From Bacteroidales bacterium (GTDB taxonomy: Bacteria > Bacteroidota > Bacteroidia > Bacteroidales > WCHB1-69), in assembly GCA_028683685.1 (NCBI GenBank), contig JAQUHH010000001.1, forward strand, positions 1-27,405: a stretch of 27,405 nucleotides of DNA. Direction: 5' to 3'. The notes under the pieces are model-generated. The model was not told the origin of the DNA and searched no databases. It saw only the letters and a list, made by a program, of their open reading frames with translations. The translations under genes and the position numbers were made by a program. Shown one piece after another: positions 1,672 through 17,435 of the stretch (positions are counted from its first letter, which is position 1; the number at the start of each line of letters is the position of its first letter).

Positions 1672-2304
1672 ATGATTCGATTTATCTACATATTGATAAT
1701 CAGCGTTCTACTTTTGGCATCCTGTTCAAAAGTAGAGAAATCATATTATGAAAATGGACAAATAAAATCGGAAGTTAGATACAAAAACAAAAAACGAGAC
1801 GGAAACTCTATTTGGTATCACCCAAATGGTCAAATCCAGATGGAGGCAAATTATAGCAATGACGTTTTAGATGGTAAACTTGAACGTTTTTTTCACAATG
1901 GCAGTTTGCAACTTATGGAAAATTACAAGGAAGGTATTTTGCATGGCGAAAAAAAGAGCTGGGACAACAAAGGTCATTTAACCTACTTTGCAAACTACGA
2001 AAACGGCAAATTACAAGGGAAATACAATGTTTATTATCCCGATGAATATATCCAGATTGAAGGGAACTATAATCAAGATAATTATCATGGGAAATGGATT
2101 TATTATTCCATTAGCGGACAAATTGTAGGAGAAGGCGAGTTTAAAAATGGAAATGGCACCCAAAATGAATATGATTTTAATGGAAGCATCAAAAAAACAA
2201 CAAAGTACAAAGACAACTTAAAAGAAGGTTTTGAGTATATTTTCAACAATAAAGGCGATACAATTACAACAAACGAATATCAAAAAGGAGAGTTAATTAA
2301 TTAA
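1672..2304 (+). CDS. MORN-variant repeat (YwqK-like) lipoprotein
   Basis: Lipobox LLASC (Cys18); repeated Y/W-Y/H-x-N-G-Q/K...Y-x-N/D-G-x-L-x-G units (YYENGQI, WYHPNGQI, FFHNGSL, YYSISGQI). Confidence 0.8.
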   Translation: MIRFIYILIISVLLLASCSKVEKSYYENGQIKSEVRYKNKKRDGNSIWYHPNGQIQMEANYSNDVLDGKLERFFHNGSLQLMENYKEGILHGEKKSWDNKGHLTYFANYENGKLQGKYNVYYPDEYIQIEGNYNQDNYHGKWIYYSISGQIVGEGEFKNGNGTQNEYDFNGSIKKTTKYKDNLKEGFEYIFNNKGDTITTNEYQKGELIN

Positions 2305-2362
2305 TTAACACCACATTCTAAATAAAAATTATATATTGAACAAAATTTCAAATAATCTGAAC

Positions 2363-3295
2363 ATGGTAAAAACTGAACTAACTGATAATGAGTACGAAAA
2401 ACTGGCATCACAAGGCATAATTAGCCTTTATCAGTTTATCAATCAAACGTTTAACATCACCGATGCAAAAACGGCTCACAATGAGCCTGAAAACAATGAA
2501 GAAATCCTTACTCAGTTTTCAGGCATTGATGACGCCATGGGTGCTTTAATTCCCGGAAATTTATACTGCGTTGCTGTGAAACCTGGCAAAGGGAAAACGG
2601 CGTTCTTACTCTCGTTGGCAAAAAACATTGCCATCAAAGATTCGCATCCCATTGCTATTTTCTCTCCCGAACGCTCTTCTTCAAAACTTATCCAAAGAAT
2701 TATTGAAAGCGAAACAGCTTCCTCTTTTTCCAAGGTTGTAAGTGATTATGCAGAACAGCTTTCAGACGAAAAAACAAATGAGCTTATTAACCGTATGAGA
2801 GAATCATCTTTTTTTATCGACGATTCAAGCATACTCTCTCCAGAAGAAATTGAAGAAAAAACTCTTTTATTAAAAGAAAACTTCAATGTTAAAGTCATCT
2901 TTATTGACAACATTGAATTGTATGCTCAACATATTCAAAATCTTGAAAAAAACTCTGAAGAGCACGATAAATTAATGGGAAAATTAAAACAAATTGCCAC
3001 TAAGCTAAACATTCCCATCGTCGCTTTTTCTCAAATATCAAATTCTAAATTTTTAAACGATCCATCGGCAGAACCTGGTTTGGAAAACATTCCTCCTTTT
3101 ATCACCGAACATTGTGATTCTATTATGGTGCTTCACCGCCCATCGGTCATTCAATTTAACAAACCGAAACACGAAGAGTGGGAAGGACATGCAAAAGTTT
3201 TTATTGTTCGCCATTCTAAAAAAGTAGAAAAAACAAGTATTCGTTTGAAATACATTGAAAAAACAGATAGTTTCACCAATGAAGATCCCCAATAG
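2363..3295 (+). CDS. DnaB-like helicase, C-terminal (RecA-fold) domain only, degenerate
   Basis: AVKPGKGKTAFLLSLA (cf. DnaB AARPGMGKTAF), IFSPERS (cf. FSLEMS), IFIDNIEL (cf. IIDYLQL), LKQIATKLNIPIVAFSQ, DSIMVLHRP. About 310 aa with no DnaB N-terminal domain. Start at ATG 2363 preferred over TTG 2336. Confidence 0.75.
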   Translation: MVKTELTDNEYEKLASQGIISLYQFINQTFNITDAKTAHNEPENNEEILTQFSGIDDAMGALIPGNLYCVAVKPGKGKTAFLLSLAKNIAIKDSHPIAIFSPERSSSKLIQRIIESETASSFSKVVSDYAEQLSDEKTNELINRMRESSFFIDDSSILSPEEIEEKTLLLKENFNVKVIFIDNIELYAQHIQNLEKNSEEHDKLMGKLKQIATKLNIPIVAFSQISNSKFLNDPSAEPGLENIPPFITEHCDSIMVLHRPSVIQFNKPKHEEWEGHAKVFIVRHSKKVEKTSIRLKYIEKTDSFTNEDPQ

Positions 3296-3824
3296 AACAG
3301 AACTGAACGAAGATTTCTTCATACAACAAGCCCATACCATTGGCATGCACATGATGACAGCTGCCGAAACGGCTCCTACTGGAAGAGGACGTAATACTCT
3401 AAAAATGTGCCTTTTGCAAAAAGAAGAGAAAGACAATATTGCCAAAGAAATGATTCGCATGGCTGAGAATGGGCATCCCCAATTTTTTTTTCGTGATGCC
3501 GAAAACATTCTTCAAGCTCATGCCCTACTCATTATGGGCTCGAGCATTGACCCGCTCGGATTGCCCAATTGCAAATTTTGCGGCTTTGATTCCTGTGAAG
3601 AAAAAAACACGTACAGCAATACTCCCTGCTCTTTCAATTCGGTTGATTTAGGCATCGCCTTAGGCTCAGCAGTTTCTACCTCGGCTCTTTTAAAAGCCGA
3701 TACTCGAATTATGTATTCTGTTGGAAAAGCAGCTCAGTTCCTTAAAATCTTAGGGGAAGATGTGAAAATTGCATTTGGAATTCCAATTAGTATCAGTTCA
3801 AAAAGTCCGTTCTTCGACCGATAG
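3279..3824 (+). CDS. DUF2148-like ferredoxin-domain / nitroreductase-fold protein
   Basis: TAPTGRG, CKFCGFDSC...PC cysteine cluster, DLGIALGSAV, DTRIMYSVGKAA, GIPISISSKSPFFDR. ATG 3279 overlaps the DnaB-like gene end by 17 nt. Confidence 0.75.
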   Translation: MKIPNRTELNEDFFIQQAHTIGMHMMTAAETAPTGRGRNTLKMCLLQKEEKDNIAKEMIRMAENGHPQFFFRDAENILQAHALLIMGSSIDPLGLPNCKFCGFDSCEEKNTYSNTPCSFNSVDLGIALGSAVSTSALLKADTRIMYSVGKAAQFLKILGEDVKIAFGIPISISSKSPFFDR

Positions 3825-3825
3825 T

Positions 3826-3883
3826 TTAGTCTTCCCCCGACTGTTTAGCGTCGCAAAACAGTCGAGAAACGATTAAAGACTAA
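3826..3883 (+). terminator. Nested stem-loop after the DUF2148-like gene, possible terminator
   Basis: Inner stem CGACTGTTT (3838-3846)/AAACAGTCG (3856-3864); outer stem TTAGTCTT (3826-3833)/AAGACTAA (3876-3883). No clean U-tract. Confidence 0.45.
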
Positions 3884-3955
3884 TTGATTATTTCCTAAAA
3901 AAAGCAAATAATCAATAAACCTATGCAAAAAACCGAATTTAACCATAAAAAAAGG

Positions 3956-3963
3956 TAATTTTG
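3956..3963 (+). promoter_or_regulatory. -7 promoter box (TAATTTTG) for the ruvX-def cluster
   Basis: TAnnTTTG 14 nt upstream of ATG 3978. Confidence 0.6.
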
Positions 3964-5565: not shown

Positions 5566-6153
5566 ATGCAAATTATCATCGAATATTTTCAAAATCACAT
5601 TTTAGAATCTGTGGCAGCATTTTTCGGCTTACTTTATCTACTTTTGGCAGCCCGAGAAAATTATCTTTGCTGGATTTCAGGCATGATCAATGTGTTGATA
5701 TTTGCTTGGATTTTTTATCATGAACAGATTTTTGCAAATATGTTTTTGCAAATAATCTATTTTATCATCAGTATTTATGGCTTCTACGCATGGGTTACCA
5801 AGAAAAAAGGACATGAGGCAGTCATCACCAAAATGGATGCTTCTTTTCGAAGTTTGGTGGTCATCATGATTATAAGTATGACCGCAGTAACTTATTTAAT
5901 TTTACAACAAACAAGTTCAAACATGCTCTTTGCAGACGCTCTTACTGCTGCTGCAGGCATTATGGCTACATGGATGCAAGCACGAAAATACATCGAAAAC
6001 TGGCTTATTTGGATTCCCACCGATATGCTACTTACCTATCTTTTCTTCTCGCATGGGCTGTATATCACCGCAAGTCTTTTTGCCATTTATACCATTATCG
6101 CCATTTACGCATATTTTAACTGGAATCGTAAACTAAGAAAAGTCTCGAAGTGA
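5566..6153 (+). CDS. pnuC: Nicotinamide riboside transporter PnuC
   Basis: LAARENYLCW, QIIYFIISIYGFYAW, DALTAAAGIMATWMQARKYIENWLIW, AIYAYFNW. Confidence 0.9.
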   Translation: MQIIIEYFQNHILESVAAFFGLLYLLLAARENYLCWISGMINVLIFAWIFYHEQIFANMFLQIIYFIISIYGFYAWVTKKKGHEAVITKMDASFRSLVVIMIISMTAVTYLILQQTSSNMLFADALTAAAGIMATWMQARKYIENWLIWIPTDMLLTYLFFSHGLYITASLFAIYTIIAIYAYFNWNRKLRKVSK

Positions 6154-6677
6154 TAAAAATTGCCATTACAGGTCCCGAATCTACCGGAAAAACAAGTCTT
6201 GCTCAAGATTTAGCAAAAGAATTTGACACCCTTTGCACTTCCGAATTTGCTCGAAATTATTTGGATGAAATCAATCGTCCTTATGAATTTGAAGACATTG
6301 AAATCATTGCCAAAAACCAACGAAAACGTGAAGATGACTTACTCCTTAAAGCAAATAAAATATTATTTTGCGATACAGATATTTTAGTCACCAAAATTTG
6401 GAGCGAATTTGTATTCAAAAAATGCAGTCCATGGATAAATCAAGAATTTGAAGCAAACGACTATAATTTATATCTGCTTTGCGACATTGATATTGTTTGG
6501 GAATACGACCCACAACGCGAACATCCTCACAAAAGACAAGAACTTTTCGACATTTATAAAAACACCTTAGAGGCTCACAAATTTCCCTACATAATTGTGA
6601 ATGGAACGGGAAATCAACGAACTCAAAATGCAATTAAAGCCATTCAAAAGCATTATTCAGTGGTACCGTCATTATGA
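6150..6677 (+). CDS. nadR: NadR-type ribosylnicotinamide kinase / AAA_28 ATPase (kinase domain only)
   Basis: IAITGPESTGKT Walker A, EFARNYL, LFCDTD, YLLCDIDIVWEYDPQRE. GTG start overlaps the pnuC stop (GTGA). No N-terminal HTH or NMNAT domain. Confidence 0.8.
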   Translation: MIKIAITGPESTGKTSLAQDLAKEFDTLCTSEFARNYLDEINRPYEFEDIEIIAKNQRKREDDLLLKANKILFCDTDILVTKIWSEFVFKKCSPWINQEFEANDYNLYLLCDIDIVWEYDPQREHPHKRQELFDIYKNTLEAHKFPYIIVNGTGNQRTQNAIKAIQKHYSVVPSL

Positions 6678-15698: not shown

Positions 15699-17435
15699 TT
15701 ACGGCATAGCCACAATACGATGTACACTTATTCCATTTTTCGTTTCAATTTTTACAAAATAGACTCCTTGTTGAAGTTCTTTTGCATTGAAAAAAAGTCG
15801 TTGCATTCCTTCGTTTAAAATTCCATTGTAAACATCCATTACTTTCTTTCCTTGCAAATCAAATAGAGCCACAGAAGTCGCTTCGGGATGAATTAGGTGC
15901 ATTTCGATGCAGGTAATTGCAGAAGCTGGATTGGGAAAAACTCGGTCTACAACAACGTTTTCCATACTTATTCCGGTAGTATTCAAAATCTTAAATCTCC
16001 AATATCCATGAGGGGCAGTAATGGGTCTGTTTATGTTTTTTCCTGAATTTGCTTCCGCATGAATGTAATAAAAAACATTATTTCCAGCTACCTGAGCAGG
16101 AATAGCAGCGGTCCAAATATGATTCTGAGCATCGCTCAAAACCATGGGGACTGGCAGATAAGCTTGATTTGTATCGATGGTATAAAACAATTGAGCAGAC
16201 GCAATTTCCGAAATATGACGAATTATCGCATTTACTGCATAGCCATTTTGATCATCATACGTATCTGAAAGTGCCTTGTGCGAAATCAGCAGAGGCTCTT
16301 TTACCCCAATATTATTGGTAATGCAATGAATGGCACCGCTGGCAGATATTGGATCTGGATCGCAATTGATCGGTACAATATTGTATCCTGGCAAAGCTTC
16401 ACTATAAATCCGAAATGCCGTAGTGTCATATTTTTTATAATAACTTGGATAAATAAAGCTTTTATTGATAAAAACTCCATTTGTATATGTTCTATAGTAA
16501 CTTCCATTGCTGGGCCATGAATTTCCTGCTTGATTTGGAAGCATGGGAATTCGCACAATTTTATAAGGTGTTCCGAAAACAGAGAGATGATTGTTTAACA
16601 AATAAAGCAAATTGGCTTCTATTTGCGGACCGTCAGAAATGCCACTGGGATAATCCCCCAACAACAAAGTTTCTTCATCCAACAATTTCATATGCATGTC
16701 GATATGATGAATTCCATCATGAGGCAAAACTTCAAATTTCACATACCTATCAACTCCCATAAATGATTTCATAATGGTATCAATCTCACTTTCCGTATGA
16801 CTGTATTGGACATTTTCGTCTAAAATTAATTTGGATGAAAAAGCAGTACCAAAACCATCAAACATTAAATTACCTCCGGTATGGGTCAAACGATACGGAT
16901 TTTGAGTCATGGCATACAAAGGCAAATTCAAATATTCTGCATGCACCGATGGAATAACGTCATCCAGCGGACGCGGACGATTGTAAATCCAATCGATTAA
17001 ATAAAGAGAATCCACATCTTCCTTGTACACGCTATACGAGCCATAGTCACGAATCCATACCGAATTAGAAGAAGTAATAATGTATTTCACATTGTCATTT
17101 GAAGTAATTCCCTGTGCTAATAAATAATTTTTAACGGTAGTTGAATCGGTACAATTAATCAAAACCTTACACTCGTTTTGAGCATGACGAATAATTTCTG
17201 CCAGCACCGATTGATAAGTACGCCAAGTAACAGAAATGGCTTCCAACTCTTCCCATTCCGCCATGGCTCTAACAGCAGAAGCGGGCGGATACGCCATCGA
17301 TTTCTGACTCGTCGGGGGCTGATAAAATGGCATTATTTCACGCTCCGCTGGCGTTAGCCCTTTGGGCAATTCCTGTGCATTAAGAATGCAAAAAGCAAAA
17401 AGAAATACCGTTGCAAAAAGGAATGTTTTTTTCAT
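15699..17435 (-). CDS. Agmatine deiminase / Porphyromonas-type peptidylarginine deiminase family protein with T9SS C-terminal domain
   Basis: Signal peptide; AEWEE, WIRDYG, TGGN, HHIDMH, GAIHCIT (catalytic Cys); C-terminal VFPNPAS...LFDLQGKKV...GVYFVKI T9SS type A sorting domain. Confidence 0.88.
   Translation of the reverse strand: MKKTFLFATVFLFAFCILNAQELPKGLTPAEREIMPFYQPPTSQKSMAYPPASAVRAMAEWEELEAISVTWRTYQSVLAEIIRHAQNECKVLINCTDSTTVKNYLLAQGITSNDNVKYIITSSNSVWIRDYGSYSVYKEDVDSLYLIDWIYNRPRPLDDVIPSVHAEYLNLPLYAMTQNPYRLTHTGGNLMFDGFGTAFSSKLILDENVQYSHTESEIDTIMKSFMGVDRYVKFEVLPHDGIHHIDMHMKLLDEETLLLGDYPSGISDGPQIEANLLYLLNNHLSVFGTPYKIVRIPMLPNQAGNSWPSNGSYYRTYTNGVFINKSFIYPSYYKKYDTTAFRIYSEALPGYNIVPINCDPDPISASGAIHCITNNIGVKEPLLISHKALSDTYDDQNGYAVNAIIRHISEIASAQLFYTIDTNQAYLPVPMVLSDAQNHIWTAAIPAQVAGNNVFYYIHAEANSGKNINRPITAPHGYWRFKILNTTGISMENVVVDRVFPNPASAITCIEMHLIHPEATSVALFDLQGKKVMDVYNGILNEGMQRLFFNAKELQQGVYFVKIETKNGISVHRIVAMP

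Follow-up and report, generated by a model that had tools for sequence, protein, structure and literature searches.

DnaB, the replicative helicase, is commonly regarded as an essential motor with one purpose. The ring is held together by its linker helix, which docks on the C-terminal domain of the adjacent subunit, and its RESG loop grips single-stranded DNA. In the DnaB of Geobacillus stearothermophilus (Bst), R420 and K418 complete the ATP site of the neighbouring subunit (structure 4esv). RecA-fold P-loop proteins outside the ancestral DNA-motor role are also known. KaiC (an autokinase of the RecA/DnaB superfamily), RadA/Sms and the archaeal RadB/Rad51 paralogues serve as nucleotide-dependent switches or accessory factors. 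Some helicases of mobile elements have the DnaB-type C-terminal domain only.

We analysed a 27,405-nt stretch of a Bacteroidales genome (hereafter the window, meaning the whole stretch), which encodes a so far uncharacterised variant of the DnaB/RecA superfamily and, next to it, a conserved partner of redox type. In contrast to offshoots of the KaiC, RadA or RadB type, the protein is clearly DnaB-derived by sequence, and no autokinase or recombination context was seen. Phages and plasmids encode DnaB_C-only helicases of similar size and single-domain architecture (PHROG 243 type; the G40P ATPase domain, 3bh0, was a structural match). The context of the protein described here is instead chromosomal and housekeeping, and its motor residues are lost. 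Our literature search found no paper on this family and no relevant work on DnaB paralogues, pseudohelicases or degenerate arginine fingers. For the descriptive part of this work (domains, motifs, selection, monophyly, range and gene pairing) our confidence is high, and for the mechanism it is modest.

Domains and motifs of the paralogue

The reading frame of the paralogue is open on the forward strand from a TTG at 2336 to 3295 (319 codons). The start was set at the ATG at 2363, the position at which the orthologues also begin, giving a protein of 310 aa (2363–3295). The Pfam DnaB_C profile (PF03796, gathering threshold 27 bits) matched it along its full length, over profile positions 2–255 of 255, with 128.4 bits and E = 4e-37. 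The same Pfam search gave no match of the protein to the N-terminal primase-binding domain of DnaB (PF00772). The best NCBIfam model was the DnaB equivalog TIGR00665 at model positions 136–433, which correspond to the linker helix and the C-terminal domain; the score of 132.7 bits is far below the curated cut-off of 385.25 bits. KaiC and RadA models of Pfam and NCBIfam scored far lower, below their own cut-offs. The earlier note had described a DnaB paralogue with the C-terminal domain only, and the comparison of C-terminal and N-terminal profiles bore this out.

The family profile aligned with residues 148–441 of Bst DnaB (2r6a/4esv), linker helix included, at E = 4e-61. An AlphaFold2 model was built from an alignment of 40 family members (pLDDT 87.4, pTM 0.89). 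When this model was searched with Foldseek, the best PDB matches were all DnaB chains (2r6a, 2q6t, 4esv, 6kza and others). The linker helix and the RecA-like C-terminal fold are thus common to the paralogue and replicative DnaB, and the N-terminal domain is missing from the paralogue.

The motifs were compared with those of Bst DnaB (2r6a/4esv) and of the DnaB of the same genome, and residue states were counted over 65 family representatives below 70% identity. Residues of the nucleotide site were kept. Walker A is PGKGKT in the paralogue, and its GKT was present in 65/65 representatives. The catalytic Glu (Bst E241) lies in FSPERS instead of the canonical FSLEMS and was found in 63/65; the Walker B Asp (Bst D320), in FIDNIEL instead of IDYLQL, was found in all 65. 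The Gln sensor (Bst Q362) was retained in 55 of the 65. Where DnaB has its second trans-acting residue (Bst K418), a basic residue persists: Arg283 in the paralogue, and Lys or Arg in 56/65 representatives. R112 and R259 of the paralogue are conserved and shared with DnaB as well.

The ssDNA-binding loop and the arginine finger, by contrast, are lost. In motif H3 the SQ of SQLNR is kept and its Arg is lost. The LRESGAIEQDAD loop of DnaB has become NIPPFITEHCD, which is two residues shorter. At the position of the ssDNA-binding loop (Bst R381-E382-S-G384), all representatives printed (25 of the 65) had no R, E or G and were two residues shorter. KHRNG has become RHSKK. The arginine-finger column (Bst R420, KxRNG), counted over 147 family sequences, holds Ser285 in the paralogue, and Arg in only four of the 147.

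Other residues are specific to the family. R104, directly after the catalytic Glu (SPER versus SLEM), was found in 65/65 representatives; E185, within Walker B (DxxE versus DYLQ), in 61/65; and Q28, in the linker helix, in 52/65. In the alignment of 40 family members, 21 columns were invariant. In one clade (e.g., L112 and L113), FSGRRPS stands at the catalytic-Glu motif and the Glu itself is gone, with all other features retained, the DUF2148 neighbour included. Hydrolysis therefore cannot be universal in the family.

Both alignments agreed with the list of motif changes given in the earlier note, which had called the catalytic motifs eroded. That description goes too far, since the cis-acting residues of the nucleotide site are near-invariant and R104 and E185 are newly invariant. 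Strong constraint acts on the cis half of this site, and the family has been re-specialised rather than eroded.

Family range, replicative DnaB and selection

The paralogue family comprised 40 clusters at 90% identity and about 50 at 50%, with identities down to 28%, all of them 282–314 aa long. In a FastTree phylogeny of 180 sequences, the family formed one side of a branch with SH-like support of 99, with 129 other, mostly canonical DnaB sequences on the other side. The phylogeny, one of the checks that the earlier note had proposed, thus placed the family in a clade of its own. This branch was the longest internal branch of the tree, and no sister group could be named among the other DnaB sequences.

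Among 301 genomes, an even sample of the order, a short copy assignable to the family was found in at least 17, from about 10 of 148 family-level groups. Whole genera were consistent (e.g., 3/3 genomes of genus g71 and 2/2 of g123). A species-level scan, with one genome per GTDB species, gave 80 loci, all from uncultured MAGs and none from a named isolate. One peptide pattern served to select this set, in which related sediment MAGs predominate. Most titles named Bacteroidales, and some named Lentimicrobiaceae, Prolixibacteraceae or Marinilabilia sp.; a few read only Bacteroidota/Bacteroidetes, Bacteroidia or Sphingobacteriia. The isolate names suggest that many of the loci come from sediment samples.

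An exhaustive profile search found no form fused to DUF2148, the domain of the downstream neighbour, and the matches at family level were all 282–314 aa long. The only longer match was P0062, a 573-aa protein of the representative library, which proved to carry two DnaB_C domains in tandem (together 497 bits) and was rejected as a fusion of the paralogue with DUF2148. P0062 has no N-terminal domain, and the catalytic-Glu and arginine-finger columns are not conserved in the stretch that aligned with the family profile.

The genome that holds the window is a 76%-complete MAG of 347 contigs. A search for a canonical dnaB elsewhere in it found a two-domain gene of 517 aa on contig C157, the sole PF00772 match of the genome, and dciA lies on contig C147. 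All 41 relatives searched had a canonical DnaB (about 460–545 aa), and 11 of them had the paralogue of about 300 aa, including 4/4 genomes of the genus. The paralogue is thus non-essential and patchily distributed. With the N-terminal domain, the ssDNA loop and the arginine finger lost, it does not qualify as a replicative helicase and would not translocate on DNA. The view of the earlier note that this is not the replicative helicase was confirmed by the genome's own dnaB and dciA and by the presence of the paralogue in only 11/41 relatives. The label "replicative DNA helicase", which is present in source names, is wrong for the family proteins of about 300 aa.

Selection was estimated against the 95%-identical orthologue of G003. 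With dN of 0.025 and dS of 0.203, dN/dS was 0.12, within the range of the neighbouring genes. Each of the four genomes of the genus had an intact frame of about 300 aa, as did more than 100 others. The earlier note had named a sole dnaB in the genome, a dN/dS near 1 and frameshifted orthologues as results that would speak against its view. The genome has another dnaB, dN/dS is low and the orthologues are intact. In a single case among the 80 loci (L086, 2875–3402), the frame was only 175 aa long, yet the tblastn match continued to residue 306; this short frame is a frameshift or an assembly error.

The DUF2148 partner and the gene neighbourhood

The gene directly downstream of the paralogue, which had gone unnoticed in the earlier note, encodes a DUF2148 protein of 181 aa on the same strand (3279–3824). 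Its ATG sits 17 nt inside the 3' end of the paralogue. The PF09918 match reached 92.6 bits against a gathering threshold of 25. The AlphaFold2 model of the protein had a pLDDT of 90.8, and Foldseek assigned it to the nitroreductase/FMN-oxidoreductase fold (3gfa, 4xom, 5yak and 3kwk; probability 1.00, TM about 0.55–0.62), with IYD also among the matches. Identity with solved nitroreductases was only 11–17%, and Pfam and NCBIfam searches gave no sequence match to the nitroreductase family. The PF09918-matched model superposes on 3gfa, 4xom and IYD, whereas an inserted C-x2-C-x4-C-x10-C motif belongs to DUF2148 and is not shared with the solved nitroreductases. The four Cys of this motif were invariant in the alignment of DUF2148 proteins from these loci. 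Structure and literature searches found no solved structure of and no paper on DUF2148.

In 76 of the 80 species-level loci, DUF2148 was the next gene after the paralogue and on its strand. The gaps between the two genes ranged from −125 to +415 nt, with 73 of them within −65 to +176 nt. Two of the four loci without a downstream DUF2148 gene stop at a contig edge. Part of the synteny in these 80 loci may reflect shared ancestry rather than selection. Among the 41 relatives, DUF2148 was present in 10/11 paralogue-positive and 3/30 paralogue-negative genomes, a contrast that overstates independence, since the relatives are akin to each other. Six paralogue-positive genomes that are 93–100% complete (G081, G249, G125, G216, G056 and G196) had no DUF2148, and neither had G015 (98% complete), another paralogue-positive genome. 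At least six genomes (G005, G012, G076, G084, G185 and G212) carried DUF2148 away from the paralogue. Because of these near-complete genomes without DUF2148 and of the others with an unlinked copy, the pairing is facultative, although the association is strong. DUF2148 as an obligatory partner was rejected on the six nearly complete genomes.

Upstream of the paralogue, on the same strand, lies a gene for a MORN_2-repeat protein (1672–2304; Pfam MORN_2, E = 1e-19) with a lipoprotein-type signal, LLASC. A MORN_2 gene was upstream of the paralogue on the same strand in 8/10 loci of close relatives but in only 9/80 species-level loci. This synteny is lineage-specific, and the MORN lipoprotein was downgraded as a core partner. 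In genome G033 (L116, contig C219, 2271–3715), a MORN gene and DUF2148 adjoin with a gap of 254 nt, with no paralogue between them or elsewhere in the genome. This arrangement looks like a deletion of the paralogue from the MORN–paralogue–DUF2148 triad.

Transcript signals were searched in the window. A Bacteroidetes-type −7 promoter-like motif, TAnnTTTG (TACGTTTG), was found at 1633–1640 on the forward strand, 32 nt upstream of the MORN start. The next copies after it on this strand lie inside the MORN gene (1709–1716) and, further on, only at 3956 before ruvX. Across the window the motif occurred 54 times against 40 expected from shuffles, a weak enrichment. Copies just upstream of gene starts were those at 1633, 3956, 10698, 20839 and 21536. 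Directly 3' of the DUF2148 stop codon, an imperfect 26-nt inverted repeat (3825–3877, forward strand) is a candidate transcript end, and a second hairpin follows at 3883–3916. The repeat has no T-run behind it, and its role as a terminator is putative. A scan of the window for sigma-70-type promoters and terminators was uninformative. These features suggest, weakly to modestly, that MORN, paralogue and DUF2148 may be carried on a single three-gene transcript at about 1672–3824. An antisense frame of 151 aa (3053–3508, reverse strand) spans the junction of the paralogue and DUF2148. Its sole similarity was to the same antisense stretch in one relative, and it is most likely not a gene.

The gene order in the window was dapD, MORN_2 lipoprotein, paralogue, DUF2148, ruvX and def, followed downstream by pnuC, an AAA_28 protein, an SSF transporter, a UvrD-like helicase, an SNF2 helicase, tgt and ribBA. 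Genes of phages, plasmids or defence systems were absent from the 27,405 nt, and PADLOC defence-system models gave zero matches for the paralogue, the DUF2148 protein and the MORN protein. The chromosomal, non-mobile context described in the earlier note was therefore upheld by the housekeeping neighbours. Two other features of the window were recorded. The gene for a PnuC-type NMN transporter overlaps that for the AAA_28 (NadR-kinase-like) protein by 4 nt (5566–6677, forward strand); they are a compact NMN-salvage pair. A protein with a Porphyromonas-type peptidyl-arginine deiminase domain and a T9SS C-terminal sorting domain is encoded at 15699–17435 on the reverse strand.

Across the 80 loci, recurrent neighbours were Redoxin/Tpx (43 loci, at position +2), DnaK (47), an ECF sigma factor (44) and a MerR-B12 (CarH-like) regulator (50). 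A SiaC-family phosphoprotein gene was directly upstream (position −1) on the same strand in 34/80. A large clade of sediment Bacteroidales (L043–L111, e.g., L064, L077 and L091) carries SiaC, Redoxin, DnaK, MerR-B12 and ECF sigma genes around the pair. In G056, one of the genomes without DUF2148, Redoxin immediately follows the paralogue. In G076 (L120, contig C42, 2924–5192, reverse strand), genes for a TrxR-like protein (Pyr_redox_2), DUF2148 and Redoxin/Tpx stand in a row, apart from the paralogue of that genome, and this row ties DUF2148 itself to thiol-peroxide genes. No linkage of the paralogue to dnaB, dciA, dnaG, dnaA or other replication genes was found in about 100 loci examined. The common theme of the neighbourhood, on this circumstantial evidence, is thiol/peroxide and general stress, not replication.

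Proposed role and alternative readings

Our preferred reading is that the paralogue is a functional, vertically inherited offshoot of DnaB specific to Bacteroidales, reduced to the linker helix plus the RecA-like domain. It would bind nucleotide, probably form rings and, without translocating, act with DUF2148 as a switch or scaffold in a redox or stress module. Taken as one claim, we give this reading an even chance of being right. With the linker kept, the RESG loop lost and the trans site half kept, the protein would be an oligomer-forming nucleotide binder that does not translocate on DNA. It probably still binds nucleotide and may still hydrolyse it, judging from the kept P-loop, Walker B Asp, catalytic Glu, Gln sensor and K418 equivalent. 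Residual ATPase activity through a Lys/Arg finger is plausible by analogy with RecA. The retained linker helix suggests a DnaB-like oligomer assembly. Translocation on DNA would not be expected, given that the ssDNA loop, the arginine finger and the primase-binding N-terminal domain are gone.

The paralogue is usually encoded, and probably transcribed, together with DUF2148, and the two proteins may act jointly in a thiol/peroxide-stress module, as a switch, scaffold or chaperone that depends on nucleotide. The nucleotide state of the paralogue could be read by the DUF2148 redox protein or could act on it; one option is that the paralogue is a chaperone for cofactor loading. We infer that the paralogue oligomerises, turns over ATP, binds DUF2148 physically and is linked to redox stress.

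A different, unlikely reading is that the paralogue regulates or poisons DnaB by inserting into hexamers, capping them or titrating the loader DciA through its linker helix and the docking surface of its C-terminal domain. Replication would then slow down or stop, and DUF2148 might exert redox control over the process. Both the linker helix and the C-terminal fold of DnaB are indeed retained, every paralogue-positive genome checked also had a canonical DnaB, and DciA is encoded in the window's genome. Loss of the DNA loop and the arginine finger is also the expected look of a non-productive subunit. Against this, none of the about 100 loci showed linkage to replication genes, and the long branch of the family with its own invariant residues, including Q28 of the linker, suggests an interface of its own. 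The earlier note had suggested a nucleotide-binding regulator or a dominant-negative subunit of DnaB hexamers; so far this is unsupported, as these loci lack replication-gene linkage and the conserved partner is a redox-type protein.

Equally doubtful is that the paralogue is a KaiC-like signalling ATPase or autokinase that acts on the SiaC-family phosphoprotein and feeds a partner-switch or ECF-sigma stress pathway, an idea prompted by the gene order of one clade. The SiaC-family gene directly upstream in 34/80 loci and adjoining the paralogue in G081, the ECF sigma gene nearby in 44/80 and a weak match to the KaiC profile of Pfam (PF06745, E = 0.0035) point this way. The KaiC score, however, was 17.2 bits against a gathering threshold of 26.6. 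The gap between SiaC and the paralogue was about 260 nt in the two loci measured (L043 and L064), and the window's own locus has no SiaC.

The pair might also be a redox-gated replication brake. The four-Cys DUF2148 would sense oxidants in these anaerobic bacteria, and the paralogue would cap or enter DnaB rings or sequester DciA, halting forks until the stress clears. We regard this as quite improbable; if true, replication would be subject to a helicase-mimic checkpoint for which no bacterial precedent has been described.

It is highly improbable that the paralogue works as an active helicase encoded by a phage, a plasmid or an integrated element. The PHROG search did match DnaB-like families at E = 1e-26 to 1e-27, all of them generic DnaB-like helicases, and the protein atlas search returned only generic DnaB_C clusters, with the look-alike clusters largely viral. 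Cellular DnaB models nevertheless scored better, and PADLOC found nothing. The reading is contradicted by the housekeeping neighbours at every locus examined and by the loss of the DNA-binding loop and the arginine finger, and whole genera carry the paralogue. A decaying duplicate or pseudogene without function, to which several departed helicase motifs, the patchy distribution and the shortened 175-aa frame of L086 might point, is effectively refuted by the dN/dS of 0.12 and intact orthologues, with full-length frames persisting down to 28% identity, 21 invariant columns across 40 members and a gain of family-specific invariant residues.

Through the paralogue, DUF2148 gains its first strong genomic partner and a testable thiol/peroxide-stress context. 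The paralogue has shed the DNA-handling parts of DnaB, kept the nucleotide site and become fixed next to a redox-type protein in many uncultured, anaerobic Bacteroidales. It shows how, in nature, a domain of a replicative helicase can be put to a new use, probably as a switch.
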